The translations under genes were made by a program, and so were the position numbers. This document shows, in pieces, positions 4,328 through 64,000 of a stretch of 64,000 bases of DNA. The DNA is taken from assembly GCA_049975265.1 (NCBI GenBank), contig JBNGDF010000012.1:1513-65512 (forward strand), given 5' to 3'. Positions within the stretch are counted from its first letter, which is position 1. Every line of letters starts with the position of its first letter. The notes under the pieces are model-generated. The model was not told the origin of the DNA and made no database searches. It worked only from the letters and a program-made list of their open reading frames with translations. This DNA is from Fidelibacterota bacterium (GTDB lineage: Bacteria; Fidelibacterota; UBA2242).

Positions 4328-4376
4328 AAAAATCCCTGTTATTTTTCACATATTTCTTTTATAACTTCCAACTACA

Positions 4377-5009: not shown

Positions 5010-5018
5010 AGGTACGGT

Positions 5019-7319: not shown

Positions 7320-7334
7320 TTTAATATTTCTCCT

Positions 7335-12367: not shown

Positions 12368-12382
12368 TTGTCATTAAAACCA

Positions 12383-12415: not shown

Positions 12416-12431
12416 TCTTTTTCTGATTTGC

Positions 12432-12530: not shown

Positions 12531-12687
12531 GCACCAAATATAGGATTGAAAATCCTTAGTGTAAAGAAAATTTTTTCAAGGAGCCGTTTTTTTACACCGG
12601 GATAATTATTACTCCCCGGATGCCCGAAACAGTAACCGGATGGAGTCCGGCTGCGATGCTACTGACCACAGCCGGACTTTCCGGATG

Positions 12688-14055
12688 CTATTTCCCATTT
12701 AGCGGCAGATGATCGAGAGCCGCCCGGATTTTCTCTTCGGGATATTCGTAATCCTCCAGTTTTCCGGACAGGTAGGCGTCGTAAGCCGCCATGTCCACAT
12801 GCCCGTGACCGCTCAAGCCGATCAGGATCGTCTTCGACTCGCCAGCCTCTTTACATTTCAGCGCCTCATCAATGGCGACCCGCACGGCATGGTCGGTTTC
12901 CGGTGCGCAGATGATCCCTTCGTTGCGGGCAAACTGCAGCCCGGCTTCGAAGGTTCCCAGCTGGTGCACCGCGGTGGCTTCCACCAGCCCCAGCTTATGC
13001 AGATGCGTCACAATCGGCGCCATGCCGTGATAGCGCAACCCACCCGCATGTACCGGCGGCGGCATGAATTCATGTCCCAGGGTGAACATTTTCAGCAGCG
13101 GTGTCATACCGGCTTCGTCACCGTAGTCATAAGCGTATAATCCCTTGGTCAGCGTCGGGCAGCTGGTGGGTTCCACATTGATAATCCGCAGGTCCGGTTT
13201 CTTACCGTCCAGTTTGTCCTTTAAAAAGGGCAGATAGAGTCCTGCGGCATTGGAGCCGCCGCCCACGCAGCCGACGATGATATCGGGGTAATCACCGATA
13301 TCTTCCATCATGGTTTTGGTTTCCTGCCCTATAATCGTCTGGTGCAGCAGCACGTGATTCAGCACGCTGCCCAGTGAGTAATGGGTGTCATCCCGGGAAA
13401 CCGCGTCCTCCACCGCCTCGCTGATTGCCAGACCGAGACTGCCGGGGCAATCCGGGTCCTCTGCCAGGATTTTCCGTCCCACCGCCGTTTCATCACTGGG
13501 GCTGGGTATGCAATTGCCGCCCCAGGTCTCCATCATGATACGACGATAGGGCTTCTGGTAAAAGCTGCATTTGACCATATAGACTTTGATTTCCAGCCCG
13601 AACAGCGCTCCGCCAAAGGATAGCGCGCTGCCCCACTGACCGGCGCCGGTCTCGGTGGTGATCCGCTTGATGCCCTCTTTTTTATTGTAATATGCCTGAG
13701 CGACGGCGGTGTTGGGCTTGTGGCTGCCGGGCGGGCTGGTGCCTTCGTACTTGTAATAGATTTTTGCCGGGGTGTCCAGAGCCTTTTCCAGACGCCGGGC
13801 GCGGTAGAGTATCGTCGGACGCCATAGCCTGAATATATCCTGCAGCTCTTCGGGAATCTCAATATAGCGCTCGGAACTCATCTCCTGCCTGATCAGCTCC
13901 ATGGGAAAGAGCGGTGCCAGATCTTCAGGTCCCAGTGGCTGTTTGGTGCCCGGATGCAGTGGCGGCGGCAGCGGCGCCGGCAGGTCTGGCAACACATTAT
14001 ACCAGTGTGTCGGCATTCGTTTTTCGTCCAAAATGTACTTCGTCTGTTCCATCAT
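12688..14055 (-). CDS. trpB: tryptophan synthase beta chain, TrpB2 type
   Basis: 455 aa PLP enzyme with the N-terminal extension typical of TrpB2 ([10 protein letters not shown]..., [16 protein letters not shown]). RBS GGAG. Confidence 0.85.
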
Positions 14056-14097
14056 TCACTCCTCTGTTTAGATTTATGGATTTCCTCTGACTGTCAT

Positions 14098-14132
14098 ATA
14101 ACAAAAATCGCGGGCTTTTTCAGGTCCGCGAT
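14098..14132 (-). terminator. attenuator terminator hairpin in trpB leader (AUCGCGG-loop-CCGCGAU + U5GUU)
   Basis: Minus strand reads AUCGCGGACCUGAAAAAGCCCGCGAUUUUUGUUAUAU, about 45 nt upstream of the trpB start. Near-identical to the tyrA-leader hairpin. Upstream CAGGU...CGAUC can form an alternative antiterminator. Confidence 0.5.
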
Positions 14133-14155
14133 CTATTTTGCTATGGTTTTTTGAC

Positions 14156-14248: not shown

Positions 14249-14302
14249 CGGCAGTTAATATAAACCGAAAATCCAAAAACACAAAAGAAAATTTCTTTTT
14301 CA

Positions 14303-14368
14303 AACCTTCGGAAGGTTTTCACAAGCCCCGCTCGTATCAAATCTCTTCCGTCAAAACTTCCGAAGGTT
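14303..14368. promoter_or_regulatory. two copies (one perfect, one degenerate) of 15-bp palindrome AACCTTCGGAAGGTT upstream of secreted-protein gene
   Basis: Perfect 7-1-7 palindrome at 14303-14317. A degenerate copy AACTTCCGAAGGTT lies at 14355-14368, 52 bp away. The same motif family is arrayed at 16650-16790. Confidence 0.45.
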
Positions 14369-14494
14369 GTATAAAGAAAGTCTTGCATTTTTTCGGTTTT
14401 TTTACATATTTCATAAGGAGAAATCGACATAATTATTCCTTCCGGGAAAATTTGCAGGAAAAGGTTTTGTGAATTATTTAACGAGGGGGAGACA

Positions 14495-47457: not shown

Positions 47458-48255
47458 ATGAAAATCATTGTACCGATTAAACAGGTTCCGGAAACCAGCA
47501 ATGTCAGGATGGATCCGGAGACCGGAACCATGATCCGGGAGGGGGTCGAGCCGATCGTCAACCCGCTGGATCTCTATGCCATTGAGGCAGCCATTCGGCT
47601 GAAAGAGCACGCCGGGGGTGAAATCATCGCTCTCACCATGGGACCGCCCAGTGCCCGCAAAGCGCTGATGGAAGCAATTGCCATGGGTTGTGATGATGGC
47701 ATTCTGCTCAGTAACAAGAAATTTGCCGGAGCGGATACCTGGTCAACATCATATGTTTTGTCGCAGGCGATTAAAAAAATCGAAAAGTTTGACCTGATCC
47801 TCTGTGGCGAGCGCGCCACCGATGGTGATACCGGACAGGTGGGACCCGGAATCGCCGCCTGGCTGGATATACCCTTTGCAACGTATGTCAGTAGGATTCA
47901 GGAGGTCCGTAACGGCAACCTGTACTGTGAACGGATGATTGAAACGGGGTATGAAGAGTTGGAGGTACAGCTGCCCTGCCTGCTGACTGTGGTCAAGGAG
48001 GTGAATTTTCCGCGCCTGCCGACATTAAAAGGAAAATTGCGTTCGAAAGCGGCGGAGCTGGAAACCTGGGGTCCGGCAGATATTGACGCCCAACCGGATT
48101 TTCTGGGTTTAAAGGGATCGCCGACCCGGGTAGTAAAAATTACCAAGCCGCAGGTGGCACGCCGGGGCAAAATTGTTGCGCCGAAAGATGAAAAGGAGTT
48201 AATGTCAGCGGTGGACGGACTGATTGAATTTTTAAAACAGAAAGAGATTGTCTGA
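47458..48255 (+). CDS. etfB: electron transfer flavoprotein beta subunit
   Basis: MKIIVPIKQVPE..., the characteristic EtfB N-terminus. 265 aa. Confidence 0.85.
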   Translation: MKIIVPIKQVPETSNVRMDPETGTMIREGVEPIVNPLDLYAIEAAIRLKEHAGGEIIALTMGPPSARKALMEAIAMGCDDGILLSNKKFAGADTWSTSYVLSQAIKKIEKFDLILCGERATDGDTGQVGPGIAAWLDIPFATYVSRIQEVRNGNLYCERMIETGYEELEVQLPCLLTVVKEVNFPRLPTLKGKLRSKAAELETWGPADIDAQPDFLGLKGSPTRVVKITKPQVARRGKIVAPKDEKELMSAVDGLIEFLKQKEIV

Positions 48256-49292
48256 TGGATAGCAACGCAGCATATCAACATGTCTGGATTCTGGGTGAGC
48301 AGGAAAGCGGAATTATCCGGCAGGTCTCCTTTGAGCTGCTGAAGCGGGGGCGCGCTTTGGCGGATAAACGCAGGTCACAGCTGGTGGCGGTTATCCTCGG
48401 TGATCGCTTTGAAGACCGTGAGTTGGCGCGCCTGTTTCACTACGGTGCCGACCGGATTATCGTTGTGCAGCGACCGGAGCTACGCTACTTTTTGCCGGAA
48501 CCCTATACCAGGGTTCTGAAGACATTGATTAATAAATACCGCCCGGAAATTCTGATAGCCAGCGCCACGACAACCGGAAGAACAGTAGCGCCGGCGGTGG
48601 CGGTTGTCTGTCATACCGGGCTGACCGCCGACTGTACCGAGTTGGATATCGATCCGGAAACGGGTAATCTGATTCAGACCCGTCCGGCGATCGGGGGCAA
48701 TATTCTGGCGACCATCAAAACGCCGGCACACCGTCCTCAAATGGCAACGGTCCGGCCTCACTCCAACAAACCACTGGAACCGGATGAGAGTCGCCGCGGC
48801 GAAATCATCCGGGAAACGGTGGAAGCAACGAGTCTGCAAAGCCGGGTCAAGCGGCTTGGATTTCGGGAAAACAGCGAAGCCGTGGGCAATATTCAAGACG
48901 CCGAAATCATCATCGCCGGCGGGAAGGGTTTCAAGAAAGATGAAAATTTCCGCATGGTGCGGGAACTGGCGGAGCTGTTTCCCGATGGTGCGGTCGGCGC
49001 AAGCCGGGATGCAGTAGACCGTGGTTGGGTCAGCTACACGCACCAGATCGGGCTGAGCGGGAAGACCGTCAGTCCGCGCTTCTATCTGGCAGTCGGGATA
49101 TCGGGTTCAGTCCAGCATCTGGCGGGGATTAAGACGGCTGAAAATATTGCCGCCATCAATAACGATCCGGAAGCCCAGATTTTTCAGGTGGCGGACTACG
49201 GAATTGTCGCGGATTTATTTGAAGTATTACCACTGATCAAAGAGAAGCTGGCAGCCCTGAATCTGAAACAGGAAGCGGAGGTGAGTGAATGA
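48255..49292 (+). CDS. etfA: electron transfer flavoprotein alpha subunit
   Basis: FAD-binding C-terminal domain (IIAGGKGF...AVGASRDAVDRGW...QIGLSGKTVSP). The start overlaps the etfB stop. Confidence 0.85.
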   Translation: MDSNAAYQHVWILGEQESGIIRQVSFELLKRGRALADKRRSQLVAVILGDRFEDRELARLFHYGADRIIVVQRPELRYFLPEPYTRVLKTLINKYRPEILIASATTTGRTVAPAVAVVCHTGLTADCTELDIDPETGNLIQTRPAIGGNILATIKTPAHRPQMATVRPHSNKPLEPDESRRGEIIRETVEATSLQSRVKRLGFRENSEAVGNIQDAEIIIAGGKGFKKDENFRMVRELAELFPDGAVGASRDAVDRGWVSYTHQIGLSGKTVSPRFYLAVGISGSVQHLAGIKTAENIAAINNDPEAQIFQVADYGIVADLFEVLPLIKEKLAALNLKQEAEVSE

Positions 49293-50713
49293 ATCCGTCC
49301 AGTTATAAGCGTGTTGATTCCGGAATAGTGGAAATGTTAAAAAAAATTGTCGGTCCCCGTTTTGTGCTTTGGGATGAGCCGGATAAAATGGAGCCTTATT
49401 CACATGATGAGGTGGTGGACAAGCGCTACATGCAGATGCCCGAAGTGGTGGTGAAACCGCGGACTGCCCAGGAGGTGGCTCAGGTGATGCAGTTAGCCAG
49501 CCGGGAAAATATACCGGTGACGCCCCGTGGTGCCGGGAGCGGGCTTTCCGGCGGTGCTGTCCCGGTGTACGGTGGAATTTTACTATCTGTGGAGCGCATG
49601 AACAGCATTTTGGAAATTGATAAAGCCAATATGGTGGCGGTTCTTGAGCCGGGTGTGATTACCAATGACCTGAATTTACTGCTGGCGGAAGAGGGGCTCT
49701 TTTTTGCGGGCTACCCCATGAGCGTGGAGAGCTGTTTTATCGGCGGGAATGTGGCGGAAAATGCCGGGGGCGGGCGAGCGGTGAAATACGGTGTCACCGG
49801 ACGCTATATTATCGGACTGGAGGTGGTTACGCCGGAAGGTGAGATCATCCAGCTGGGCGGCAAACGGGTCAAGGATGTGGTGGGTTACGACCTGATTCAT
49901 CTGATGGTAGGCTCCGAAGGGACGCTGGGGATTTTTACCAAAATTTTTATTAAACTGTTGCCGCTGCCGTCAAAGCGGGTAGACCTGCTGGTCCTGTTTA
50001 AAGATATCGCCAGTGCGGTGGCGCTGGTGCCGAAGATCATCGCTTTCGGCAAAATCATTCCCACCGCTGTGGAATTTATGGATAAAACCGCCGTTGAACT
50101 CGCCTGCCGCTATTTAAATGAACAGCTCTATTCGCAGGACGTGGGAGCCATGCTGCTGATCGAGCTGGACGGCAACGACGAGCCCGGGCTGGAGCGGGAA
50201 TATGAAGTGATCGGTAAAATGTGCGAAGAAAACGGCGCCATTGAGGTCTATGTAGCCGATAACGCCACGACTCAGGAGCGGGTCTGGGCGGTGCGGCGCA
50301 ATGTACCGGAGGGAATCCAGACCTTTTATCCCGTTAAAAGTTCCGAGGATTTGGTGGTGCCCATTGCCAACCTGCCGGAAATATTGCCGCAGATCACTGC
50401 CATCGCAAAAAAGCACGATGTCATCATCCCCTGCTTTGGTCATGCGGGCGACGGGAACATACATACCACGATTGTTAAGAAACCGGAAATGTCAATGGAC
50501 AGGTGGCATGAAGTTCAGGAGACGGTCCGGGTGGCGCTGTATCAGATGGTGCTTGCCAAAGGGGGCACGATCAGCGGTGAGCACGGTATTGGTCACAAGC
50601 GGAAAAAATATCTTTCCATGGCACTCGATCCGGTAACAATCCGGCTGATGAAGCGAATCAAGCAGGCTTTTGATCCGGATCATATTCTGAATCCGGGGAA
50701 AATGTTTGAATAG
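49289..50713 (+). CDS. FAD-linked oxidase, GlcD/D-lactate dehydrogenase family (LctD-like)
   Basis: FAD_binding_4 fold (PRGAGSGLSGGAVP) plus a C-terminal FAD-oxidase domain. Overlaps the etfA stop by 4 nt. The order etfB-etfA-oxidase matches the LctBCD lactate dehydrogenase/ETF complex. Confidence 0.7.
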   Translation: MNPSSYKRVDSGIVEMLKKIVGPRFVLWDEPDKMEPYSHDEVVDKRYMQMPEVVVKPRTAQEVAQVMQLASRENIPVTPRGAGSGLSGGAVPVYGGILLSVERMNSILEIDKANMVAVLEPGVITNDLNLLLAEEGLFFAGYPMSVESCFIGGNVAENAGGGRAVKYGVTGRYIIGLEVVTPEGEIIQLGGKRVKDVVGYDLIHLMVGSEGTLGIFTKIFIKLLPLPSKRVDLLVLFKDIASAVALVPKIIAFGKIIPTAVEFMDKTAVELACRYLNEQLYSQDVGAMLLIELDGNDEPGLEREYEVIGKMCEENGAIEVYVADNATTQERVWAVRRNVPEGIQTFYPVKSSEDLVVPIANLPEILPQITAIAKKHDVIIPCFGHAGDGNIHTTIVKKPEMSMDRWHEVQETVRVALYQMVLAKGGTISGEHGIGHKRKKYLSMALDPVTIRLMKRIKQAFDPDHILNPGKMFE

Positions 50714-50724
50714 CGAAAAAAAAC

Positions 50725-50766
50725 TTGCAGTTTTGAAACTGTTTAAGTATAATTGTATATACAATT
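50725..50766 (+). promoter_or_regulatory. sigma70-like promoter TTGCAG-17-TATAAT overlapped by perfect 16-bp palindrome AATTGTATATACAATT
   Basis: Same architecture as the 47236 module. Immediately upstream of the regulator gene, consistent with autoregulation. Confidence 0.6.
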
Positions 50767-50788
50767 GAATCAGGAGTAAGATCCAGCC

Positions 50789-51886
50789 ATGATCATCGAT
50801 CGAAACAGCCCGGTACCGCAGTATTTTCAGTTGCAAACCTGGCTACGGGAGCAGATTGAGCAGAGGGTTTTTAAACCGGGCGATAAGATACCGACGGAAG
50901 AGGAGCTGGTCCATATCACCGGTCTGGCGCGGGCAACGATTCGTCAGGCGATCAGCAATCTGGTGAATATGGGCTATCTGACCCGCAAACGCCGTCTGGG
51001 AACTTTTGTCACCCGGCGCTCAAACAGGACCCAGCCTAAAAACATCATCGGTGTTTTGGTGCCCGACATCCGGAGCGGCTATACACCGGAATTAGCCCGG
51101 GGTGTGGAAGATGCCGCCGCCAACAATAAACTGAGTACAATTTTGTGTAACACCGATGACCTGTTTATCAAGGCGGCTTTTCATGCGGAGCGTCTGCTTG
51201 AGAGCAATATCGGCGGGGTGATCTTTGTCCCCACCGCCGCTTCCGACGAAAAGAATCTGCAGATTATTGACAAATTTCGCAAGCGGAATATCCCCGTGGT
51301 GCTGGCGGACCGCATCATTCCGAACACCGATGTGGACTATGTGACAACCGATAATTTTCACGGCGGTTACCAGCTGACCAACTATTTAATCAAAAAAGGG
51401 CACCGCAGGATCGGCATCACGCTCAGCACGCTTTTCAGCACCGAGCGGCTGCGTTATGAAGGGTACCGCAAAGCCCTGGAAGAGGCGGGAATTTCACCCG
51501 AATCCGGCTGGATCAGACTGCATGACGGACCCTTTACAGAAAAGCATTATCAGCAGGTCGCCAAAGATCTGTTGAGCCATGACCGTAAAATCAGTGCCAT
51601 GTTCGCTGGGCATGACCGGATTGCCTATGTTGTTTATTCGGTTGCCCAGAAATTAGGCATAAAAATTCCGGTGGATCTGTCGATCGTAGGCTATGATGAT
51701 TTACATTCCACCTGCTCCCATCTGATTTCCCTGACGACCATGCATCAACCGATTTATGAGATGGGGCAGGAGAGTCTCGGAATTCTGGTTTCCAGGATGA
51801 ATGGTGACAACGGGGGGCTCAAGCGACTGGAGTTAAAATCCAATTTGGTGGAACGCAACTCGGTCGTACGCTTTAAGAATTCCTGA
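50789..51886 (+). CDS. transcriptional regulator, GntR-family HTH fused to LacI/PBP1-type sugar-binding domain (AraR-like)
   Basis: N-terminal PGDKIPTEEELVHITGLARATIRQAISNL winged helix. The C-terminal 290 aa have a periplasmic-binding fold (GVLVPDIRSGYTPE..., VGYDD). Confidence 0.75.
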   Translation: MIIDRNSPVPQYFQLQTWLREQIEQRVFKPGDKIPTEEELVHITGLARATIRQAISNLVNMGYLTRKRRLGTFVTRRSNRTQPKNIIGVLVPDIRSGYTPELARGVEDAAANNKLSTILCNTDDLFIKAAFHAERLLESNIGGVIFVPTAASDEKNLQIIDKFRKRNIPVVLADRIIPNTDVDYVTTDNFHGGYQLTNYLIKKGHRRIGITLSTLFSTERLRYEGYRKALEEAGISPESGWIRLHDGPFTEKHYQQVAKDLLSHDRKISAMFAGHDRIAYVVYSVAQKLGIKIPVDLSIVGYDDLHSTCSHLISLTTMHQPIYEMGQESLGILVSRMNGDNGGLKRLELKSNLVERNSVVRFKNS

Positions 51887-51916
51887 ATCCTAAAAAAAGT
51901 GAAAAGACATTAGTAA

Positions 51917-52930
51917 ATGAAAAAAATGATCAACATCGGATTGATTGGCACCGGACGGTTGGGGAGTATGTATGCCGAATTTCTGGTTCAGCATGTCCCG
52001 CAGGCAAATCTAATTGCGGTGGCGGATTTGATTCCGGAGCGTGCACAAAAGATAGCGGAACAGTACGATATTCCGAAATGGTACGACAGTCATCAAGGGG
52101 TCAATCGCGATCCGCAGGTAGATGCGGTGGTGATTACGGCGACCACCGGCAACCACAAGGAGATTGTCATTGATGCCGCCCGGGAAGGCAAACCGGTTTT
52201 CTGTGAAAAGCCGATGACGCTGAATCTTGACGATGCCCGGGAGATGAAGCGGGCGGTTATAACGGCGGGTGTTTTTTATCAGCAGGGTTATATGCGCCGG
52301 TTTGATAAGGGATTTTCGGCGGTAAAGCGGAAAATCGAAGAGGGTGTCATCGGAACGCCGGTGGTGTTTCGCGGATCATCCCGGGACCCCTTTCTGCCGG
52401 AGTTAGATTATCTTTTACCTGAGAACAGCGGGGGTCAGATTCTGGATATGGCGATTCATGATTTCGATATTGCCCGCTGGTATATGGGTGATATTCGGTC
52501 GGTCTATACGATTGGCGGCGTGCTGGCATTTCCCGAAGTCAAGTCTACCGGTGATACCGATAATGTGGTCATGGCATTTACTTTTCAGTCGGGCGCACTG
52601 GGCGAAGTTGATATCAGTCGCAACGGCGTCTATGGCTATGATATCCGGGCGGAAGTACTGGGAACCAAAGGGACCCTAAAGGCGGGTTATCTGCGAGATA
52701 CGCCTATTCTGGTAATGAACAAAGAGGGCGTAACCCACGACGTCGTACCCTATTTCCCGGAACGCTTTTGTGAAGCCTATGTCGCCCAATTGAATAACTA
52801 TCTGAATAATCTTCGTAATGCAACCGACCCGCTGATCACCATTGACGACGGCATCAGTGGTTTGCAGGTCGCTGTCGCTGCGACAGACTCCCTGAAAAAG
52901 GAAACCGCCGTTAACGTTGCCGATTATTAG
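51917..52930 (+). CDS. Gfo/Idh/MocA-family oxidoreductase (inositol 2-dehydrogenase-like)
   Basis: N-terminal Rossmann IGLIGTGRLG and an EKP motif (FCEKPM). Confidence 0.7.
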   Translation: MKKMINIGLIGTGRLGSMYAEFLVQHVPQANLIAVADLIPERAQKIAEQYDIPKWYDSHQGVNRDPQVDAVVITATTGNHKEIVIDAAREGKPVFCEKPMTLNLDDAREMKRAVITAGVFYQQGYMRRFDKGFSAVKRKIEEGVIGTPVVFRGSSRDPFLPELDYLLPENSGGQILDMAIHDFDIARWYMGDIRSVYTIGGVLAFPEVKSTGDTDNVVMAFTFQSGALGEVDISRNGVYGYDIRAEVLGTKGTLKAGYLRDTPILVMNKEGVTHDVVPYFPERFCEAYVAQLNNYLNNLRNATDPLITIDDGISGLQVAVAATDSLKKETAVNVADY

Positions 52931-52997
52931 AATTTTTTTTGAATATTATTGTCTATTCAATTATATGAATGTATCAATTAAAAAGAAAGGAAGATAG

Positions 52998-54185
52998 ATG
53001 AGAACCGTGACTCTTTTTGCCGACTGGGACCCTAAACCGGAGTTCAAGCTGGGTAGTAAGGATATCGAGGGTAAATTAACCTATCTTGGGAGCAAAGTCT
53101 GGCGGCATCCCCACGTGGAGATTGTGGAGAAAGAGATTCCGAAACCGGGTCCTTCGCAAGTGCTGATTGAAGTCCGGGCTTGCGGGATTTGTGGGAGCGA
53201 CGTGCATATGCTGCAGACGTCGTCGGACGGCTACATTTTTTATCCGGGACTGACTGCTTTTCCGGCGACGCTGGGGCATGAGTTTTCCGGAAAGGTGATT
53301 CAGGCGGGACCCCAAGCGATCAACAAGCGAACCGGTCTGCCCTACGAGGTGGGCGAGGCGGTCTGTTCTGAGGAGATGATGTGGTGTTCCTACTGTCGTC
53401 CCTGCGCCGACGGATTTCCCAATCATTGTGAGCATTTGCAGGAGATCGGTTTTTCCTGCGATGGTGCCTATGCCAAATACATCGCCGTGGATGCCCGCTA
53501 TCTCTGGAGCATTGAAGATTTACGACCAATTTACGGTGAGGAAAAAATGTATGAGCTGGGCAGCCTGGTGGAGCCGACGTCGGTGGCGTATAATGCGGTC
53601 ATCGAACGGGGCGGCGGCATTCGACCAGGCGATAATGTGGTGATCATGGGCAGCGGTCCGGTGGGCATCGCTGCCTGTGCTGTTCTAAGTCGAGCCGGTG
53701 CGGCGAGAGTGATCATTTCAGAACCCTCCCAATCCCGGCGGGATATGGCGATTGCCATGGGTGCCACACACGGCATTGATCCGACCAGAGTGAATGCCGC
53801 CGATGCTATCCTAAATATTACCAATGGTGAGGGCGCCAAGCTGATTCTCGAAGCCACCGGTCTGCCCAGCGTGGTCTGGCCGGATGTGGAGAAGATTATC
53901 TGGGAAGGCAAAACTCTGAACACGACGGTGGTCATCGTAGCCCGGGCGGACGATAAAATTCCTATGAACGGTGAAGTGTTCCAGGTCCGCCGGGCAAGTG
54001 TGGTTGGCGCCCAGGGGCATTCGGGACACGGAACCTTTCCACGGGTGATCAGCTCCATGGCAAGTGGCATGGACGTATCGGGATTGATCACCAAGCGCAT
54101 CAAGCTGGAAGAGGTACCGGAAAATCTGGTGCTGTTGCAAACCAATCGGGAAGAGGTGAAAATTACCGTTTTCCCTGAAGAGTAA
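52998..54185 (+). CDS. zinc-dependent alcohol/polyol dehydrogenase (MDR family)
   Basis: CGICGSDVHM, GHEFSG, and Rossmann GSGPVG. Confidence 0.75.
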   Translation: MRTVTLFADWDPKPEFKLGSKDIEGKLTYLGSKVWRHPHVEIVEKEIPKPGPSQVLIEVRACGICGSDVHMLQTSSDGYIFYPGLTAFPATLGHEFSGKVIQAGPQAINKRTGLPYEVGEAVCSEEMMWCSYCRPCADGFPNHCEHLQEIGFSCDGAYAKYIAVDARYLWSIEDLRPIYGEEKMYELGSLVEPTSVAYNAVIERGGGIRPGDNVVIMGSGPVGIAACAVLSRAGAARVIISEPSQSRRDMAIAMGATHGIDPTRVNAADAILNITNGEGAKLILEATGLPSVVWPDVEKIIWEGKTLNTTVVIVARADDKIPMNGEVFQVRRASVVGAQGHSGHGTFPRVISSMASGMDVSGLITKRIKLEEVPENLVLLQTNREEVKITVFPEE

Positions 54186-54218
54186 GATTCAACAAATAAA
54201 AAAAAGAGAGGTAACGAT

Positions 54219-55313
54219 ATGGAAGGCTGGCTGAAAACAGATCGAACCGACCTGAGTTTTGAGGACACGTCGGTCGGACGGCTGAAGAAGAAAATCTGGG
54301 AAGCTTCGGAAGATGAAATTTCCGAAATTCTGGAAAACTACGGAATTCCAACACCCTCGGAACTGGCGAAACCGGGTACCTATGTGCAGACAACCATTCG
54401 ACAGAAAGTGGTGGAAAACCGCAAGAAAAATGATATTGTCTTTGTGCCTATTGGCTGTACCGAGCTGCATGGTCGGCACACGGTCACTGCTTTGGACTCA
54501 TTTATGGTGACCCAGATTCTGGAGGGTGTCCGCCGGGATTCGGTGAAAAAGGGCACGCCGGTGAATCTGGTCTGGAATCCGCTGAATTATGGCGGTCATC
54601 CCCATCACCATATCGGCATGCCGGGCACGATTCACATTGAGGATGAAGTGCTGAAACGGGTGCTGATTGACGTCATGGTTGGTCTCTGGAATGACGGATT
54701 CCGTAAAATCATTCTGGTAAACAATCATGGTCACTCCTGGCTTCTGGAGGCGGCGATTCAGGAATTGCAGAAAACCTGGAATCTGCCGGGCATTTTCCGC
54801 ACGATTGACTGGCATCGCGCCGTACGGGAGTTTTTCCGCACCAGAGATAGGGGCGGCGATTGGGAGGATAATTTTTTCCATGCCGATGAAGCCGAAACCT
54901 CGGTAATGCTGCTGTTGGCGCCGGAATATGTCGAAATGGCGCTGGCGGAAGAGACCAGGGTAGAGGGCTATCTGCCCGATGGTCACATGGATAAAGCGGT
55001 AGATCCCTTTGCTAGACCCTGCCGCTGGTCGGAGGGACAGGGGCACGGCCCGATGGAGATCAATTCGATTCCCGAAGGGGTGGTAGGTCGTCCCACGATC
55101 GCCGAAGCCAGAAAAGCCCGGCGCACCATCGCTGCAATTTTGTCCTATCTGACCCTGTTATGGGAAGAGATTCTGGAAGCCTATCCCGCCGGCACATTTC
55201 CGCCGATTGAAAAGACCACCATGCGAACGGAAAAGGAGATGGAACCGTACCTGAAGGAGCCTTTTACTGAGGGTTGGCGTCCAATCTATGCCATTCGCAA
55301 GATGGGATTGTAA
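54219..55313 (+). CDS. creatininase-family amidohydrolase
   Basis: PIGCTELHGRH, LVNNHGHSW and HADEAETSVML match the three metal-binding blocks of PF02633. Confidence 0.65.
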   Translation: MEGWLKTDRTDLSFEDTSVGRLKKKIWEASEDEISEILENYGIPTPSELAKPGTYVQTTIRQKVVENRKKNDIVFVPIGCTELHGRHTVTALDSFMVTQILEGVRRDSVKKGTPVNLVWNPLNYGGHPHHHIGMPGTIHIEDEVLKRVLIDVMVGLWNDGFRKIILVNNHGHSWLLEAAIQELQKTWNLPGIFRTIDWHRAVREFFRTRDRGGDWEDNFFHADEAETSVMLLLAPEYVEMALAEETRVEGYLPDGHMDKAVDPFARPCRWSEGQGHGPMEINSIPEGVVGRPTIAEARKARRTIAAILSYLTLLWEEILEAYPAGTFPPIEKTTMRTEKEMEPYLKEPFTEGWRPIYAIRKMGL

Positions 55314-55393
55314 AAAATGAGAATGAATATCTGAAATAATCTGCCTGTGCCACAGATTGTGGTACGGGGCGGATTTAAATCGAAAGAAATCTC

Positions 55394-56386
55394 ATGAAGA
55401 GACAAAACATTCAATATTTATTGCTCAGTGCATTGATTCTGGCGCTTGCCATCGGTTGTCAACCCGAAATACCCGGAACAGGCGAAGATGTTATTCCCCA
55501 ACACGCCCAGTCTCTGGCGGAGCTGGAGGAGCCTTTTACATTTTTGATTGCCGGGGATCTGGGTCGCAACGGATATTATTATCAGAAGCCCGTGGCGGAA
55601 ATGATGGGGGCGGTTGTCGCCATCGTGGATGCGGAGTTTGTCGCAGCTGTGGGCGATGTCCACCATTTTCTGGGTGTCCGGTCGATTCATGATCCGCTCT
55701 GGGAGACCAACTTCGAGTGGATTTACAAACATCCCGAATTGATGACACACTGGTACCCGGTATTGGGCAATCACGAATATGAGGGCAATACCCAGGCTGT
55801 TATCGACTATTCCGGAATTAGCCGCCGCTAGGAAATGTCTGCCCGTTATTATGAAAAGACGTGGCAGGTAGCCGGTAATACCGAAGTTCTGCTGCTTTTT
55901 ATCGATACGGTGCCGCTAATTGACAAATATCGTAATAATCCGGAGGAGTACCGCGATGCCTGTACACAGTCCATGGAGCGGCAGCTGACCTGGATCGATT
56001 CCACTCTTGGCGCCTCCGGAGCCAAATGGAAAATCGTGCTGGGGCATCACCCCATTTATGCCGGTACATATAAAGATGATATTGAACGAACCGATTTGCA
56101 GAAACGCCTTCAGCCACTGCTTGACAAACATCATGTGGATTTTGTGGTTAGTGGGCATATTCACAATTTTCAGCATATCCGGGTGAAAGGCTCCGACATT
56201 GATTATTTGATCAACACTTCAGGTTCGCAGGCTCGTGAAGCTGATGAAAGACACCGGACGGAAGGACAACTGTTTACAAGTTCGGATTCCGGCTTCTCCC
56301 TTTGTACGGTGAAAGAGGATGAGTTGATTATTACCTTTGTTAATAAAAAAGGGGAAATCATCTATCAGTATGCCCGAAGCAAATAA
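55394..56386 (+). pseudogene. purple-acid-phosphatase (ACP5-type) metallophosphoesterase interrupted by in-frame TAG at 55829-55831
   Basis: ORFs 55394-55831 and 55835-56386 are in the same frame and together match ACP5 end to end (GDLG..., GDVHH, GNHEY / GHHPIY, GHIHNF). The TAG falls where ACP5 has a conserved Trp (ISKRW vs ISRR*), consistent with TGG to TAG. Confidence 0.6.
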
Positions 56387-56430
56387 TCCACGGAATGGTT
56401 TTTCCGGTTCCGGTAATTAGGAATGGAACA

Positions 56431-57243
56431 ATGAAGCTCAGTATAGTAATCTCGACCCAGCCGGCGACATTCAATGCCCTGGCTTATAAAGGCAAAGTTG
56501 CAGAGAACATTGAAAAGGTGCGAAAACTGGGTTACGATGGCGTCGAACTGGCGGTTCGTGATCCGCGGCTGCTGGATTTGGCGGTGGTGAAGGCATTGAC
56601 CATTGATACCGGATTTCCGGTGTCCGCCCTTGGAACCGGACAGGCTTTCGGCGAAGAAGGGCTGTCATTTTCCAGTCCCGATCGGACAATTCGCAGGAAA
56701 GCCATTGAAAGGATTAAATCGCACATTGATGTCGCCGCGCAGTTAAACGCAATTGTGATTATTGGATTGATTCGCGGCATTGTGAAGCCGGGAGATGATC
56801 CGGAGCAAGCCGAGGCATGGATTATTGAGGCGCTCGATACGTGTGCCGCTGTTAATCCGGATGTCAAATTGGTCATTGAGCCCTGTAATCGTTATGAAGC
56901 CAATACGGTCAACACGGTTGGCGAGGGCATGGCTCTGGTGGACAAACTGGGACGAGCAAATGTCGGTCTGCTGCTGGATACCTTTCATATGAATATCGAA
57001 GAGCCGGATATGCTGGAAAGTATTGAGAATGCCGGTCAGCGGTTATTTCACTTCCACATCGCCGATTCCAACCGCTGGTATCCGGGCGCCGGTCATATTG
57101 ATTTTCAGGCGGTTTGCTGGAAGCTGTCCCAAATCGGTTATGCGGGCTTTCTGTCCGCTGAGATTCTGCCCTTACCCGATGCCGATACCGCCGCCGAAAT
57201 GACCATTCATACAATGCGAAATTTGGAAAACATAAAAAAATAA
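56431..57243 (+). CDS. sugar phosphate isomerase/epimerase (xylose-isomerase-like TIM barrel)
   Basis: AP endonuclease 2 / IolE-IolI fold: LGYDGVELAV..., HIADSNRWYPGAGHIDF. Confidence 0.7.
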   Translation: MKLSIVISTQPATFNALAYKGKVAENIEKVRKLGYDGVELAVRDPRLLDLAVVKALTIDTGFPVSALGTGQAFGEEGLSFSSPDRTIRRKAIERIKSHIDVAAQLNAIVIIGLIRGIVKPGDDPEQAEAWIIEALDTCAAVNPDVKLVIEPCNRYEANTVNTVGEGMALVDKLGRANVGLLLDTFHMNIEEPDMLESIENAGQRLFHFHIADSNRWYPGAGHIDFQAVCWKLSQIGYAGFLSAEILPLPDADTAAEMTIHTMRNLENIKK

Positions 57244-57272
57244 AGCCCAATGGTATTGGGATTGGAGGACCT

Positions 57273-58316
57273 ATGGAAATGATGAATGCGCTTGTTTTTA
57301 AGAAAGTCGGACAGATTGACTTTGAATGGATTCCAATTCCGAAAGTGACCGAGCCGAACCAGGTTCTGGTCAAAGTCGCCGCCTGTGGGATATGCGGCTC
57401 CGATGTTAAAATTCTCGAGGGTAAACATGCTTACCGGGAAAATACGGTACTGGGACATGAGTTTTGCGGAACGGTGGTTGAGGTCGGCAATAGAGTCACG
57501 GCTGTCAAAAAGGGCGACTGGATTGCCCTGGATAACAACTCCCGCTGCGGACTGTGTGAATTTTGCCGGATGGGTATGAGCAGTCAGTGTGTGGAATTAA
57601 AGAATCGCACCCTGGGAGTTTTCAGGAACGGCGGTTTTGCGGAGTACACCCTGGCAACCGAGGACGTCTGTTTCAAAATTCCCGATACCATTGATGAAAT
57701 TCTCGGGACTCAGGTGGAAACCCTTGGCACCGTGCTGAACGGAATGAATACCGTCCAGATGCAGTGTTACGATTCGGTGCTGGTGCTGGGATGTGGTCCG
57801 ATTGGTTACCTTTTTACCGCCATTGCCAAGAATGTTGCCGCCGAAGTTGCCGTAACGGAAATTGATCCCTTCCGGTTCAAAGTTGTGGAAAAGTTCGGAG
57901 TACCTGTTTTTAATCCCGATGAGTGTGATCTGGAAGCTGAGGTCATCAAACTCACCAATGGCAAGAAGTTTGATATTGTCATAGATGCGGTGGGGACCCA
58001 ATTGGAGAATGCCCTGAAATATGTCACACCCGGCGGAAAAATTCTGGCATTCGGGATGGACAGCAGCTGTAAAGCGACGATTGATCCCTATATCGTTACC
58101 CGGAATGCGATTAAGATTCTGGGAACCTACATCGGGCAGAATACCATTTTGCCGGCGATTAAGCTCTATCGAACCCATAAGCTGGAAATGGACAATTTTT
58201 TCACTGAAACACTGCCTCTGAGGGATGGTCCGGGTGCGTTTAGAAAGCTCGGTCTGGATTTAAAAACGCTGCAACACCTACCCAAACGGGCGATGAAGAT
58301 TGTACTGAAGCCGTGA
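57273..58316 (+). CDS. zinc-dependent alcohol/polyol dehydrogenase (MDR family)
   Basis: CGICGSDVKIL, GHEFCGTV, and the structural-Zn cysteines CGLCEFC. Confidence 0.75.
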   Translation: MEMMNALVFKKVGQIDFEWIPIPKVTEPNQVLVKVAACGICGSDVKILEGKHAYRENTVLGHEFCGTVVEVGNRVTAVKKGDWIALDNNSRCGLCEFCRMGMSSQCVELKNRTLGVFRNGGFAEYTLATEDVCFKIPDTIDEILGTQVETLGTVLNGMNTVQMQCYDSVLVLGCGPIGYLFTAIAKNVAAEVAVTEIDPFRFKVVEKFGVPVFNPDECDLEAEVIKLTNGKKFDIVIDAVGTQLENALKYVTPGGKILAFGMDSSCKATIDPYIVTRNAIKILGTYIGQNTILPAIKLYRTHKLEMDNFFTETLPLRDGPGAFRKLGLDLKTLQHLPKRAMKIVLKP

Positions 58317-58344
58317 AAATCAAGCTCGTTACAGAGGACTATGA

Positions 58345-59697
58345 ATGAATAAAATATTACGATTTTTCGCGACCGGTAAAGATAAACCGCTGATTCAGGA
58401 TCAGGCAAAAGTCGACCGACTGTACAGGCGATACCGCTTGTCGGTTATGCTGGCGATCTCGGTGGGGTATGGTCTGGCGTATACCTTGCGATTGGCATTG
58501 AATATGGTCAAGAAGCCGATTCTGGATGCGGGAATTTTTACCCCCACCGACTTGGGGAATATCGGTTCGGCGCTTCTCTATACTTATGCCATCGGTAAAT
58601 TTACCAACGGATTTTTAGCCGACCATGCCAATGTCAAACGCTTTTTTGCGTTCGGGGTATTGATGTCAGCCCTTGTCAATATTGCGATGGGTTCTTCAGC
58701 GATTCTCTGGCTTTGGATCATATTGTGGGGGTTGAACGGCTGGTTTCAGTCTTTCGGTGCGCCCACGGGTGCGGTCACGCTTTCCAACTGGTTCAGTAAA
58801 TCGGAACGGGGACGTTTCTATGGAATCTGGAGTACCGGTCACAATATCGGTGAGGGCTTGACCTTTGTCGTGACGTCGGCGGTCGTCTCCTATTGGGGCT
58901 GGCGGGCTGGATTCATTGTTCCGGGAGTGTTTTGCATATTGCTGTCCGGACTGATTTATCTGGCGCTGCAGGACAAACCCCGCACTCTGGGATTACCCCT
59001 GGTAGCTGACTGGAAAAAGGATTACAGTGCTCCGCCGGATCTTGAGAAAAATAAAACCGAGCTGACCTCCAAAGCGCAGTTGCAGGTTCTGAAAACTCCG
59101 GCGATCTGGGTTTTGGGTTTCGCCAGCGCCTTTGTTTACATGACCCGCTACGCCATTAACAGCTGGGGCGTGCTCTATCTCCAGGAAGCCAAAGGCTATT
59201 CGCTGATGGAGACGGGCGCGATTCTCGGTTTAAATACGGTTGCCGGTATTTTCGGCTGTATTGTGTATGGTTTCATTTCCGACAAACTGTTCAAAGCGCG
59301 GCGTCCGCCGGTGACTCTGATTTACGGGATCATCGAGCTGACAGCGCTGTTTATCATCTTTTTCAGTGCTCCAAATCAGCCTATTCTGGTGACGGCGGCA
59401 TTTGTCTGCTACGGTTTTACCATGAGTGGTCTGCTGGCTTCACTGGGAGGCTTGTTCGCCATTGATATTGCGCCGAAAAAAGCCGCCGGCGCTGCGATGG
59501 GTTTTATCGGTATTTTCAGCTATATCGGTGCCGGTATCCAGGATCAGATCAGTGGTCTGCTGATTGAGAAGGGGTGCCGGATTGTGGATGGAGCCCTGAC
59601 CTACGATTTTTCGAAGGTGATTATGTACTGGATCGGTTCATCCTTCTTATCAATGATTCTGGCTGCGATACTTTGGAAAGCTAAAACCAGCGATTAG
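58345..59697 (+). CDS. MFS transporter, organophosphate:phosphate antiporter (GlpT/UhpT-like) family
   Basis: 12 TM. N-terminal YRRYRLSVMLAISVGYGLAYTLRLAL...GFLADH pattern as in GlpT/UhpT. Confidence 0.6.
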   Translation: MNKILRFFATGKDKPLIQDQAKVDRLYRRYRLSVMLAISVGYGLAYTLRLALNMVKKPILDAGIFTPTDLGNIGSALLYTYAIGKFTNGFLADHANVKRFFAFGVLMSALVNIAMGSSAILWLWIILWGLNGWFQSFGAPTGAVTLSNWFSKSERGRFYGIWSTGHNIGEGLTFVVTSAVVSYWGWRAGFIVPGVFCILLSGLIYLALQDKPRTLGLPLVADWKKDYSAPPDLEKNKTELTSKAQLQVLKTPAIWVLGFASAFVYMTRYAINSWGVLYLQEAKGYSLMETGAILGLNTVAGIFGCIVYGFISDKLFKARRPPVTLIYGIIELTALFIIFFSAPNQPILVTAAFVCYGFTMSGLLASLGGLFAIDIAPKKAAGAAMGFIGIFSYIGAGIQDQISGLLIEKGCRIVDGALTYDFSKVIMYWIGSSFLSMILAAILWKAKTSD

Positions 59698-59715
59698 AAA
59701 TCGGAGAAAAATTTT

Positions 59716-60597
59716 ATGAAACATTATGACACAGTAATTTTTGGGAATTATACCAGCGATACCATCATTACCAAACAGGGCAGCCGCCATGTAGACGGTG
59801 GTGGTTTTAATTACGGCGCCCATGCGGCGGTGGGGCTGGGATATAAAGTAGCCGCCGTGACACGGTTGGCGAAAGCCGACAGCCATGTGATCAGCATGCT
59901 GGAAAACGCCGGAATTGATGTTTTCCCCACCTTTACGTCGTCATCCACCCAGATGGTTCTGGACTACCCGACGGATAATCCCGACGAGCGGATTCTGACC
60001 TGTCCGCAAACCGCTGGCAGTTATACGATTGACCAGTTTCGGGATTTTCGCGCCAAAGCCTGGCTGATCAACACCTCCGTCAGGGAGGAGGCGCCGGTGG
60101 AGCTGGTAGAGTATCTGCATGCTCAGCCGGGACTGCTGGTGGCGGACGCTCAGGGCTTCGTCAGAGTGCGTGGTGAGGGCGGTCGTCTGATTCATGCTGA
60201 ATGGCCACAAAAGCGGCATGTGCTGAGCATGCTGAACATTCTGAAAGCCGATATCAAGGAGGCGGAGTCACTGACCGGTGAGAGCGATCTGAAAAAAGCG
60301 GCGAAGATTCTCAACGAGTGGGGACCTGCCGAAATTGTTCTGACCCATCGCAGCGGTATCCTGGTGTACGCCGATGGGAAATATTATGAAGCCGGATTTT
60401 TCCCGGAAAAGCTGATCGGTCGCAGTGGGCGCGGTGATACCTGTATTGCCTTGTATGCCGCTAAGCGACTATCGGCGCCGCCGGAAGAAGCAATTATCTG
60501 GTCGGCGGCGGTGACGAGCCTGAAAATGGAAGCGGACTCGCCCTTTTTAAGACCGCTCGGCGACGTTGAGAAACTCATCGAAAGGAGATACCGATGA
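59716..60597 (+). CDS. PfkB-family carbohydrate kinase
   Basis: Ribokinase fold with the C-terminal GRGDTCIA anion-hole motif (DTxGAGD-like). Confidence 0.7.
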   Translation: MKHYDTVIFGNYTSDTIITKQGSRHVDGGGFNYGAHAAVGLGYKVAAVTRLAKADSHVISMLENAGIDVFPTFTSSSTQMVLDYPTDNPDERILTCPQTAGSYTIDQFRDFRAKAWLINTSVREEAPVELVEYLHAQPGLLVADAQGFVRVRGEGGRLIHAEWPQKRHVLSMLNILKADIKEAESLTGESDLKKAAKILNEWGPAEIVLTHRSGILVYADGKYYEAGFFPEKLIGRSGRGDTCIALYAAKRLSAPPEEAIIWSAAVTSLKMEADSPFLRPLGDVEKLIERRYR

Positions 60598-61487
60598 ACA
60601 GGGGCAATACAATTTTAAGAAAGAGTTCCAGAACTGTCTTTATGGCGATTGTACTGGCGTTGATGCTGGTAATCCCGCTGTTCAATTGTTCGGTTGAAGA
60701 GCCGGTCTCCTTTATTGTCGCCCAGGATCAGCGGTATAAAGCCACAGAGGAGTATCACCACCCAGAATACTTTATGGGAGCATTGCTGGCGATTAAAGAG
60801 GTCGGACCGGGCGACTTCATGCTCAGTCCGGGCGATCTGGACCCGATGTATGCCACCCGGGAGCTGGTAGCGGAAATTCTCGGTGCGGATTATCCCTGGT
60901 ATCCGGCGGTGGTCAACCACGACATGGAGGATCCGGAAACTATGGCCTATTTTCGGGATTATAACCGCAACGGGAATTCCCTGCCCCATATCGTCCGCAG
61001 TGGTCCGCCGGGCTGTGAGGAGACCACCTACTCTTTCGAAATCGGTGACTGTCATGTGGCGGTCATCAACGTCTATTATGATGGGAAATCTGATGTGGGT
61101 ACCGATGGCGATGTGGTTCCGGAGCTGCTGGAATGGCTTGAGGAGGATCTCAAAAACACAGATAAGCCCTTTATTTTTGTCGCCGGGCATGAGCCGTTGG
61201 TGGCGCAGCCGGATATGGATAATGGTCGCGTTCGGCACCAGGGCGATTCGCTGGATAAATATTTTCGCAATGCCTACAAGCTGCGGGAGCTGCTGAAAAA
61301 ATATAACGTTCAGGGAATTTTCAACGGGCATTCCCACGGCTCTTCGGTTGCCAAGGTCAATGGTCTCTGGCAGCTGGATGCCGGGCACGCCTACGGGTTG
61401 GAAAGAAAAACCCCGGAGCGAATGTACTGCTCCAGGGCACCAATTTCGGTGCCACCACCGACCGAACCGGTTATTTTTGTATTCTGA
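60594..61487 (+). CDS. secreted/lipoprotein metallophosphoesterase (calcineurin-like); C-terminal ~30 aa probably out of frame
   Basis: Signal with lipobox-like LFNCS. GDLD, NHD, GHEP and GHSHG metal motifs. The tail LERKTPERMYCSRAPISVPPPTEPVIFVF looks like frame noise. Frame -1 continues as a receptor N-terminal domain (see next feature). Confidence 0.6.
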   Translation: MNRGNTILRKSSRTVFMAIVLALMLVIPLFNCSVEEPVSFIVAQDQRYKATEEYHHPEYFMGALLAIKEVGPGDFMLSPGDLDPMYATRELVAEILGADYPWYPAVVNHDMEDPETMAYFRDYNRNGNSLPHIVRSGPPGCEETTYSFEIGDCHVAVINVYYDGKSDVGTDGDVVPELLEWLEEDLKNTDKPFIFVAGHEPLVAQPDMDNGRVRHQGDSLDKYFRNAYKLRELLKKYNVQGIFNGHSHGSSVAKVNGLWQLDAGHAYGLERKTPERMYCSRAPISVPPPTEPVIFVF

Positions 61488-64000
61488 ATGTACCGGTGGG
61501 TACCTATACGGTGATGGTCTCGTATGTAGGATATGATGAGTATTCGGAGGCGGTGACGATTGGGGGATCGGATGAGCGGGTGACGCTCAATGTGGAACTC
61601 AGTCCCCGGAGTATTGAGATGGGTGAAGTACTTGTCACCGGTCTGCGCCAGGGACAGGCGAAAGCGCTGAGTCAGCAGAAATCGGCGGAAAGTATTAAGA
61701 ATGTCGTAGATGAAGAGCAGATGCAGCTCTTTCCCGATATGAATTCTGCCGAGGTTCTGCAGCGCATTCCCGGGGTCTCGATCACCAGAGATCAGGGCGA
61801 AGGGCGCTACGTGCTGGTAAGAGGTACCTCACCGCGTCTGAATTCCACATCCGTCAACGGTGTCAAGATTCCATCACCGGAAGGTGGTGACCGCAGTGTC
61901 ATGCTGGATGTCATTTCCGCCGATAATCTGTCCGGAATTGAAGTGACGAAAGCCATTACACCGGACATGGACGGCGATGCCATTGGTGGCGCCGTCAATC
62001 TGAAAACCAAGAGTGCACTCGACTATCCCGGTAAAGTTCTCAGTGGAACGCTGGGCGGCGGCTACAACAATCTGGTTGGTAAGGGCAATTTTCAGGGGGG
62101 TCTGAATTACGGGGATCGCTTTGGTGCTGACAACCATATCGGATTGATGCTTAGTGGCAGCTTCCAGCGCGCCAATCGGGGCTCCCACAACAACGAGATG
62201 GATTGGGGCGATGTGGATGATCCCAGCGGCGGAGAGTATGAATGGGCGCTGAAGACTCTGGAACTGCGGGATTACGTGATCAGACGGGACCGCATGACCC
62301 TGTCCGGAAATCTGGATTACATGATTAGCGAGGGCAATAAGTTTTACCTGTCCGGCATGTTTACGAACTACAGTGACGTGGAGACCCGTCGCGCTATGGT
62401 CATTGATCCCGATAATGCTGAATTCTACAATACGCCGACCAATAGTCCCGAAACGGCATTTGCCTCGGAAATCAAGGACCGGACCCAGACCCAGATGCTG
62501 TATAATTTCATTGCCGGCGGCGAGAACCAGTTTGCCAAGTTGAAAATGGACTACTATGTCTCCTACGGATATGCTCAGGAGGAAGAGCCGGATAAAATCG
62601 AGTATGCCTTCGAACTGGATGAAGAGCCGGAGGTTAACCTGGATATATCCGATCGGGACCTGCCATTATGGAATATTGCCGGTCTGGCTGAGGGCTATGA
62701 ATACGATCGGGCAAATTATGAGTTTGATGAACTCGAGGCGGACACAACCAAGACCACCAACCGTGACATCGGCGCCGCACTGAATTTTGAAATACCCTAT
62801 AGTCTGGCTGGCTATCAGGCGAAATTGAAGTTCGGTGGGAAAACAACGCTGAAGAAGAAAGATCGCGCTGAAAATATCTGGGAATACGGCTGGGAAGGCG
62901 ATGCTGATGTTACGATGGACCAGTTTAATGAACCGGAAAGAGATAAATTATTTGGCGGTGATTATGTCAGAGTTCTGTCTCCTGACCCGGGAAAGGTCAG
63001 AGACTGGTTTATAGAAAACCGGGACAGTGGTCTGTTGGAAGGTGAGCTGTTATTGGATGATACTTACGGTGCCACCTATGAAGCGACGGAAGATGTCTAT
63101 GCCTACTATGCCATGACTACGGCAAATCTGGGTCGGCTGATGCTGCTGGGTGGTTTCCGGCACGAGATTACGAGGATCGATTATCTGGGACATGAAGTGA
63201 TTTTTAATGAAGACGGTGACTTTGAACAGGTTCTTGACAGAGAAAATGAGAAGACATTGTCCCATATTCTCCCGATGGTCCATCTGCGATATCAAGCGAC
63301 TGAACGAACCAATCTGAGATTGGCGTTGACCACCGGCATTGCGCGACCGGATTACGAGACGCTGGTTCCCTACAAGCTAATCTACCGGGAAGATGAGGAG
63401 ATGGAGATCGGAAATCCGGACCTGGAGCCCACCACATCGGTGAATTTTGATCTGCTGGGCGAGCACTATTTCCAGAACATCGGTATCCTGTCCGGTGGTA
63501 TCTTTATGAAGTCGCTGGATAAGATCATCTACCCCTTTCAGTATGAAACGGAATCGGATGATCCGAATTACCCGAAATACGATGTCGAAACATGTTTTCA
63601 GGGAAAAACCGCCAACCTGTTCGGACTTGAGGTACACTGGCAGCAACACCTGACCTTTTTACCGGGATTTCTGAAACATATCGGCATCTATAGTAATTAT
63701 ACCTACACGACATCATCAGCAACTGTTGGAGAACGTGAGGATCTGCCCCTGGCAGGTCAGTCGGCAAGTATGGCAAATTTTGCCCTGAGTTATGACAAGG
63801 GTGGCTTCAGCGGTCGAATAAGTATGAATTATCACGGTGCATATCTGTCTGAATTAGGCGAAGAGGATGGCGAAGATATTTACTACGACGATCATGTTCA
63901 GTGGGATTTCTCTGCCAGCCAGAAACTGGTCGGCGGTCTGCAGTTCTATGTGCAGGCAGTCAATCTCAACGATGCCTATCTGCGGTACTATATGGGTGAG
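61307..64000 (+). CDS. TonB-dependent outer-membrane receptor with N-terminal carboxypeptidase-regulatory-like domain; no start codon in frame; 3' end outside window
   Basis: Frame open from 61307 to the window end. GANVLLQGTNFGATTDRTGYFCILNVPVGTYTVMVSYVGY is a CarbopepD_reg domain. A plug follows (VLVTGLRQGQ...VLQRIPGVSIT...VLVRGTSPRLNS...) and then barrel repeats. There is no ATG/GTG/TTG before the domain. Confidence 0.7.

Follow-up and report, generated by a model that had tools for sequence, protein, structure and literature searches.

A probable deletion between short direct repeats joins a metallophosphoesterase gene to a TonB-dependent receptor gene in a Fidelibacterota genome

Two overlapping frames and their intact relatives

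The stretch of DNA analysed here (64,000 nt, hereafter the window) comes from a Fidelibacterota MAG, and the genes, codons and A5C4 run described for it below all lie on its plus strand. A metallophosphoesterase ORF at 60594-61487 encodes a product of 297 aa that is identical to protein MGC9364378.1 of the MAG, and the Pfam family Metallophos (PF00149) matches residues 72-249 of this product. A second frame, shifted by -1 relative to that of the phosphoesterase, opens at 61307 directly after a TAA codon (61304-61306) and continues to the end of the window at 64000, overlapping the final 180 nt of the phosphoesterase ORF. This second frame, referred to here as the receptor frame, has Pfam matches to CarbopepD_reg_2 (E=4.6e-18), Plug (E=1.6e-15) and TonB_dep_Rec_b-barrel (E=3.9e-24), as well as to OMP_b-brl_3.

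A first-pass annotation of the same DNA had described the receptor frame as open from 61307 without a start codon or signal peptide, and as overlapping the phosphoesterase ORF by 180 nt in the -1 frame. Both descriptions were confirmed by frame translation and by comparison with orthologues, and no ATG, GTG or TTG codon is found from 61307 up to the point where domain homology sets in. The annotation also had the frame “immediately” encoding a CarbopepD_reg domain, which is not the case. The CarbopepD_reg_2 match starts at frame residue 36 (nt 61412), and the 35 codons ahead of it are phosphoesterase DNA. Since the match begins at position 15 of a profile of 88 positions, the domain is cut at its N-terminus. 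In GenBank, a CTG codon (61427..61429) is used as the start of the receptor, giving a product of 880 aa (P0126, “MLQGTNFG…”) without a signal peptide. The frame is open to 64000, and the GenBank product has 23 more amino acids past the end of the window. A scan of positions 59600-62000 for promoters and terminators returned counts near the shuffled expectation.

The 120 nearest phosphoesterase homologs inspected are ~395-402 aa in length, nearly all of them falling within 385-415 aa, compared with 297 aa in the window. The 90%-identity cluster that contains the 297-aa phosphoesterase also includes a 402-aa protein (P0121), which was found on two contigs of the same species as the window: contig CAZRLZ010000116.1 of assembly GCA_964600915.1 (L002) and a Logan contig from SRR8186049 (L003). 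A 74-kb Logan contig (L001) is more distant and syntenic, and encodes a phosphoesterase (P0002) with 88% amino acid identity to that of the window. On all three contigs the homologous locus consists of two separate and intact genes, namely a 402-aa phosphoesterase and, after a spacer of 113-115 nt, a 941-aa receptor with an ATG start codon and a signal peptide. The first-pass annotation had suggested this comparison of homologous loci, and had stated that a start codon and signal peptide of the receptor's own would count against its reading; both are found in the intact alleles. Receptor homologs are ~920-945 aa long and begin with a signal peptide, and the full-length orthologue P0127 (941 aa) scores 519 bits against TIGR01782, for which the cutoff is 310. 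In L001 the receptor (11323-14146) is called as two overlapping genes of 309 aa and 640 aa, which implies a frameshift or an assembly indel near 12224-12252.

The gene order in L001 is regulator, GFO_IDH_MocA oxidoreductase, Zn-ADH, creatininase-family protein, Metallophos (355 aa) and AP_endonuc_2, followed by a further Zn-ADH, MFS transporter, PfkB kinase, Metallophos (402 aa), TonB-dependent receptor (TBDR) and beta-propeller phytase. L002 and L003 keep this order as far as their contigs extend, and the window is collinear with all three loci save for one absent block. By BLASTN, window positions 56717-61417 align with L002 1-4701 at 98.3% identity without gaps. The left flank aligns with L003 1-4675 at the same identity, likewise ungapped, and the gap pattern against L003 is that seen against L002. 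To the right of the absent block, window 61412-62230 matches L002 5367-6185 (92%) and window 61412-61561 matches L003 5341-5490 (99.3%). Against L001, the corresponding alignments pair window 50564-61418 with 6-10825 (85.4%) and window 61412-63999 with 11488-14076 (82.3%).

Divergence from the same-species contigs is uneven. The dS of the phosphoesterase gene relative to L002 and L003 is 0.196, compared with 0.014-0.025 for the adjacent ADH, MFS and PfkB genes. The window receptor is 92% identical to that of L002, yet 99.3% identical to that of L003 over the 150 nt available. This mosaic divergence suggests that the phosphatase-receptor end of the locus has undergone recombination or allele exchange (window 60594-62230 compared with L002 and L003).

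The junction and the two gene remnants

The block absent from the window comprises 671 bp (L002 4702-5372), and in the intact allele a copy of CCCGGA marks each of its ends, at L002 4696-4701 and 5367-5372. Three-way register alignments place the junction at a single retained CCCGGA (61412-61417), so that of the two copies present ancestrally exactly one is left in the derived allele. With a slash marking the breakpoint, L002 and L003 read …AAAAACCCCGGA/TTATAT… on the left and …CTGCCCGGA/GCGAATG… on the right, and the window reads …AAAAACCCCGGAGCGAATG…. Over a longer span, the left and right sides in L002 and L003 are …GGAAAGAAAAACCCCGGA/TTATATATTCC… and …GACTATCTGCCCGGA/GCGAATGTACTGC…, and the window is …GGAAAGAAAAACCCCGGAGCGAATGTACTGC…. 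The alignment with L001 shows the identical gap at 85% identity. Loss between short direct repeats is a well-known product of replication slippage or illegitimate recombination. Microhomology of at least 6 nt is expected at ~0.2% of random breakpoints, as estimated from L001 and L002. The longest direct repeats in the intact region (L002 4400-5700) are imperfect and 12-24 nt in length, and none of them is located at the breakpoints. Both CCCGGA copies contain CCGG, and cutting at such a restriction site with subsequent rejoining would yield the same product as slippage.

The deleted DNA covers residues 275-402 of the phosphoesterase (128 codons) and its stop codon, the 115-nt spacer with its AGGAGG ribosome-binding site, and residues 1-55 of the receptor, that is, the signal peptide MVKKSLYFRIWSKLFCSMLVAFFFICLLALPVELNA followed by DVTGCIEGRISDRESGDYL, including the ATG. 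In L002, the receptor signal peptide runs MVKK…PVELNA and is followed by DVTG. Because the two genes are in different frames, the loss of 671 bp joins them out of frame, which explains both the 22-codon tail of the phosphoesterase ORF and the 35 codons that precede receptor homology. Judging from these alignments, the 180-nt overlap is the footprint of the 671-bp deletion and not a chance feature.

The phosphoesterase remnant (60594..61417) consists of codons 1-274 and 2 nt of codon 275 of a gene that has 402 codons when intact, and it retains a signal/lipobox-like N-terminus (…VIPLFNC) and the Metallophos core up to GHSH. The remainder of the ORF (61418..61487) aligns to codons 58 onward of the L002 and L003 receptors and is CarboxypepD_reg coding DNA of the receptor in the wrong frame (…E RMYCSRAPISVPPPTEPVIFVF and a stop codon). 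The alignment with phosphoesterase homologs diverges exactly there. This tail had been taken at first for 30 codons of frame noise; it is indeed out of frame, though it is ~22 codons long (61419-61484) and made of receptor DNA. Conversely, positions 61307..61411 are a stretch of 35 stop-free codons in the -1 frame of the phosphoesterase gene, aligning to the phosphoesterase genes of L001-L003, and merely make the receptor frame look longer. Receptor homology starts at 61412, and from there the receptor remnant (61412..64000, extending past the window) corresponds to codon 56 of 941 onward; by tblastn, residues 56-285 of the L001 receptor map to 61412-62101.

We infer that the receptor remnant could be neither made nor exported, and could not reach the outer membrane, because it has no start codon, ribosome-binding site or signal peptide. 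Among the features of a functional TBDR, the Plug and beta-barrel domains are present, and the start codon and signal peptide are missing. The CarboxypepD_reg domain, which is complete in all close homologs, is reduced to profile positions 15-88 with the loss of the first 14. The phosphoesterase remnant probably misfolds, because it has lost a conserved C-terminal part of 128 residues that includes three terminal strands which a confident model puts in the core sandwich, and loss of function is its likely predicted fate. Where a lipoprotein metallophosphoesterase of ~400 aa has its C-terminal ~128 residues, the remnant has 22 out-of-frame residues instead. The lost part holds the invariant residues F341, S368, Y384, R385 and Y393 (alignment A2) and others that are near-invariant. 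In an AlphaFold2 model of the intact phosphoesterase (pLDDT 92.7, pTM 0.86), it forms five helices (a helical insert) and three terminal beta-strands. Foldseek aligned the intact model with purple acid phosphatases (1ute, 2bq8) and with GpdQ/Rv0805-type diesterases over up to ~405-415 columns. As these alignments take in roughly all 402 residues of the query, its terminal strands are likely to belong to the core sandwich.

In GenBank the two remnants pass for normal proteins, one a “metallophosphoesterase family protein” of 297 aa and the other a “TonB-dependent receptor” of 880 aa, and the CTG start at 61427 hides the truncation of the latter. Neither should be counted as functional in a metabolic reconstruction of this MAG.

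Further lesions and the origin of the junction

Two point lesions were found elsewhere in the locus. Codon 107 of the phosphoesterase remnant (60912..60914) is GTC, encoding Val, where the GNH(D/E) metal-binding motif (VNHD in the window) has its Gly. L002 has GGC at this codon, and Gly is found in 30 of 30 full-length homologs. The other motifs of the phosphoesterase (GD, GH and GHxH) are present. Further upstream, a second metallophosphoesterase gene (~55391-56386) encodes a purple-acid-phosphatase-like lipoprotein, the L001 orthologue of which is 355 aa long. In the window, this gene contains a premature TAG (55829..55831) for the TGG (Trp) of L001, a position occupied by Trp in 19 of 19 homologs. 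TAG also serves as the normal stop codon of the MFS gene that ends at 59697. The 120 best matches listed for the second phosphatase include no protein from this MAG, and the best match for a same-species copy is only 84% identical and comes from the L001 contig.

As a separate observation on the first phosphoesterase, its family has an invariant D45-x-R47 (alignments A1 and A2) where canonical metallophosphoesterases have their first D-x-H, and the Pfam Metallophos match starts only at profile position 30. The family may have an atypical active site.

A contig from a related population (L004, Logan SRR28876213; ~92% identical to L002) carries another deletion. Within its positions 1-1600, ~380 bp have been lost in a separate event, so that the PfkB gene, in its 3′ part, meets approximately codon 99 of the phosphoesterase gene at the repeat CGGCGG. 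Receptor homology in L004 stops after ~110 codons, beyond which lie genes for a response regulator, a histidine kinase and PAP2. L004 would represent either a chimeric contig or a state in which the locus has decayed further. Taken together, the premature TAG, the G107V substitution and the L004 deletion favour real and ongoing decay over a single assembly accident.

The first-pass annotation had placed the switch between the two frames at the A5C4 run and offered three readings of it: an indel error splitting two genes, a frameshifted pseudogene, or a genuine fusion. The run is present at 61406..61414 as described, but it is not the switch point. It belongs to the phosphoesterase gene's own coding sequence (…E R K T P…), just 5′ of, and overlapping, the junction repeat, and the intact L002 and L003 genes have it at the same length and unshifted; L001 has GAAAGAAAGACTCC instead. 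A one-base sequencing error in the run, splitting or merging otherwise intact genes, would suit the frame change of -1, and homopolymers are typical sites of indels. The equal length of the run in the intact L002 and L003 genes argues against it, however, and with 671 bp missing between the CCCGGA repeats no single-base correction restores either gene. A single-base error was rejected, as the phosphoesterase gene has physically lost 128 codons and the receptor gene 55, together with the spacer; the chance of this reading being correct is close to nil. The pseudogene option holds in so far as the lesion joins two genes out of frame, although its cause is a deletion and not a -1 shift.

A functional fusion would depend on a -1 slip in the 180-nt overlap during translation or transcription, such as at A AAA A / CCCC, and this we regard as extremely improbable. 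Equally improbable is the product that would result, a chimera of lipoprotein signal, phosphoesterase and TonB receptor coupling hydrolysis to uptake. Such a fusion could draw on a signal peptide from the upstream ORF, both frames are stop-free throughout the overlap, and five A followed by four C stand shortly ahead of the junction. Yet the two parts are out of frame in an arrangement derived by deletion from an ordinary two-gene locus, and both are cut inside folded domains, leaving a chimera without 32% of the phosphoesterase and without the first strand(s) of CarboxypepD_reg. The zero-frame codons GAA AGA AAA ACC CCG offer no canonical slippery heptamer (X XXY YYZ), and five A is well short of the lengths known for efficient transcriptional slippage. 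The run occurs in the L002 and L003 genes, which need no shift, and is missing in L001; neither the motif nor the overlap is conserved, the orthologues being two separate genes. The annotation had proposed a search for proteins with the architecture Metallophos+CarbopepD_reg+TonB_dep_Rec, and none was found among the relatives inspected. Metallophos does not occur together with Plug or a TonB barrel in any of the 120 nearest phosphoesterase homologs or of the 120 nearest homologs of the receptor. A scan with the phosphoesterase core against 1.84 billion representatives gave 739 matches at E <= 0.001, and among the 150 of these that were listed are 17 long relatives (844-1847 aa). According to Pfam, none of the 17 has a Plug or TonB barrel; they carry beta-propeller, Ig-like, CBM96, PKD or dockerin domains together with T9SS sorting signals.

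We assign a small chance to the organism keeping an intact locus and the gap being an artefact of assembly or consensus. Its source would then be a chimeric read, a chimeric contig join or a variant from a rare subpopulation that the assembler picked. The sequence does come from a MAG, the junction is present in one assembly only, and the low dN/dS of the retained phosphoesterase part (0.09 relative to L002) would suit a gene still under selection. A collapse during assembly, however, is difficult to reconcile with a repeat of 6 nt, which is far under any assembler k-mer, and with an intact region that holds no long repeat. Both flanks come from one species cluster (left 98.3% and right 99.3% relative to L003). 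Moreover, losing exactly the DNA between two short direct repeats is what marks a biological deletion, and 6 nt of microhomology would rarely be met by chance at the frequency given above. A misjoin would also leave unexplained the TAG at 55829 and the G107V substitution, two point lesions in the same locus, base substitutions being an unlikely product of an assembly join. Searches of GTDB species genomes and JGI metagenomes gave 0 matches for the deletion junction and likewise 0 for the intact junction, which served as a control. Because the intact junction was also without matches, these collections do not include this species, and the null results are silent on allele frequency.

On balance, we consider it probable that the window holds a microhomology-flanked deletion allele of an ordinary two-gene locus, with two gene remnants left behind, and that the deletion is present in the organism. 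The ancestral locus would have comprised a PfkB kinase gene, a gene for a 402-aa metallophosphoesterase of the surface-lipoprotein type, a spacer with a ribosome-binding site, and the gene for a 941-aa TBDR (followed in L001 by a phytase gene). Replication slippage or RecA-independent illegitimate recombination could then have removed 671 bp between the CCCGGA copies, leaving one copy. The dN/dS of 0.09 carries no sign of long-term relaxed selection, so the event is recent or, less likely, artefactual. The deletion would be both real and recent, and one part of the decay of the locus in this strain. The mechanism is nothing unusual, and events of this kind are already known. The window allele, the L004 deletion, the TAG codon and G107V could also be read as a sign that short-repeat deletions and point inactivation repeatedly strike this organophosphate-uptake locus in this Fidelibacterota lineage, with adaptive loss of a phytate/organophosphate uptake module at the strain level where phosphate is replete; this is doubtful. 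Low-level -1 slippage in the 180-nt overlap, exporting a chimera of phosphatase fragment and receptor by way of the lipoprotein signal peptide, would be more exotic still. More generally, what looks like a homopolymer frameshift or fusion can be the trace of a far larger deletion, and comparison with a close relative resolves such a case at once.

Locus context and comparison with known systems

Upstream of the junction, window positions 47458-60597 encode ETF beta/alpha, an FAD-linked oxidase, a GntR/LacI-type regulator, a GFO_IDH_MocA oxidoreductase, two Zn-ADHs, a creatininase-family protein, an AP_endonuc_2 TIM barrel, a UhpC/GlpT-type MFS transporter and a PfkB kinase. In L001, a beta-propeller phytase gene (14254-15384) is located 3′ of the receptor gene. 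From its gene content, the locus looks like a cluster for the uptake and catabolism of inositol phosphates or other organophosphates, the substrate being putative. The lesions hint at strain-level decay of a phosphorus-scavenging locus of phosphatase, TBDR and phytase genes in Fidelibacterota, which would be of modest interest for population genomics.

Pus-type clusters of Flavobacterium, which are phosphate-scavenging loci of the FCB group, have SusD-less TonB-dependent transporters beside phytase, phosphatases and sugar-phosphate permease-like transporters (bioRxiv 10.1101/719427). The intact locus is similar in that it contains two lipoprotein metallophosphoesterases, a SusD-less TBDR and an MFS transporter of the UhpC/GlpT/PgtP type, with a phytase in L001. 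It differs from the Flavobacterium clusters in its phylum, Fidelibacterota (Marinimicrobia), and in its receptor, which belongs to the TIGR01782 subfamily and not to SusC. In the window, a further difference is that inactivating or suspect lesions affect the receptor as well as the two phosphatases. The coupling of hydrolysis to uptake, which the first-pass annotation had pictured as a fusion, would be achieved in the ordinary way, through neighbouring genes that encode separate surface and outer-membrane proteins.

The window shares with -1 frameshifting of the dnaX type the overlapping frames and an A-rich run near the junction. Unlike dnaX, it has no slippery heptamer, no conservation of the motif and no intact downstream domain at the shift, and its overlap was made by deletion. 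Deletions in E. coli lacI are classic examples of deletions between short direct repeats. The allele in the window resembles those of the lacI type in the exactness of the loss, the retention of one repeat, a deleted length of hundreds of bp, and the presence of both repeat copies in the ancestral allele.
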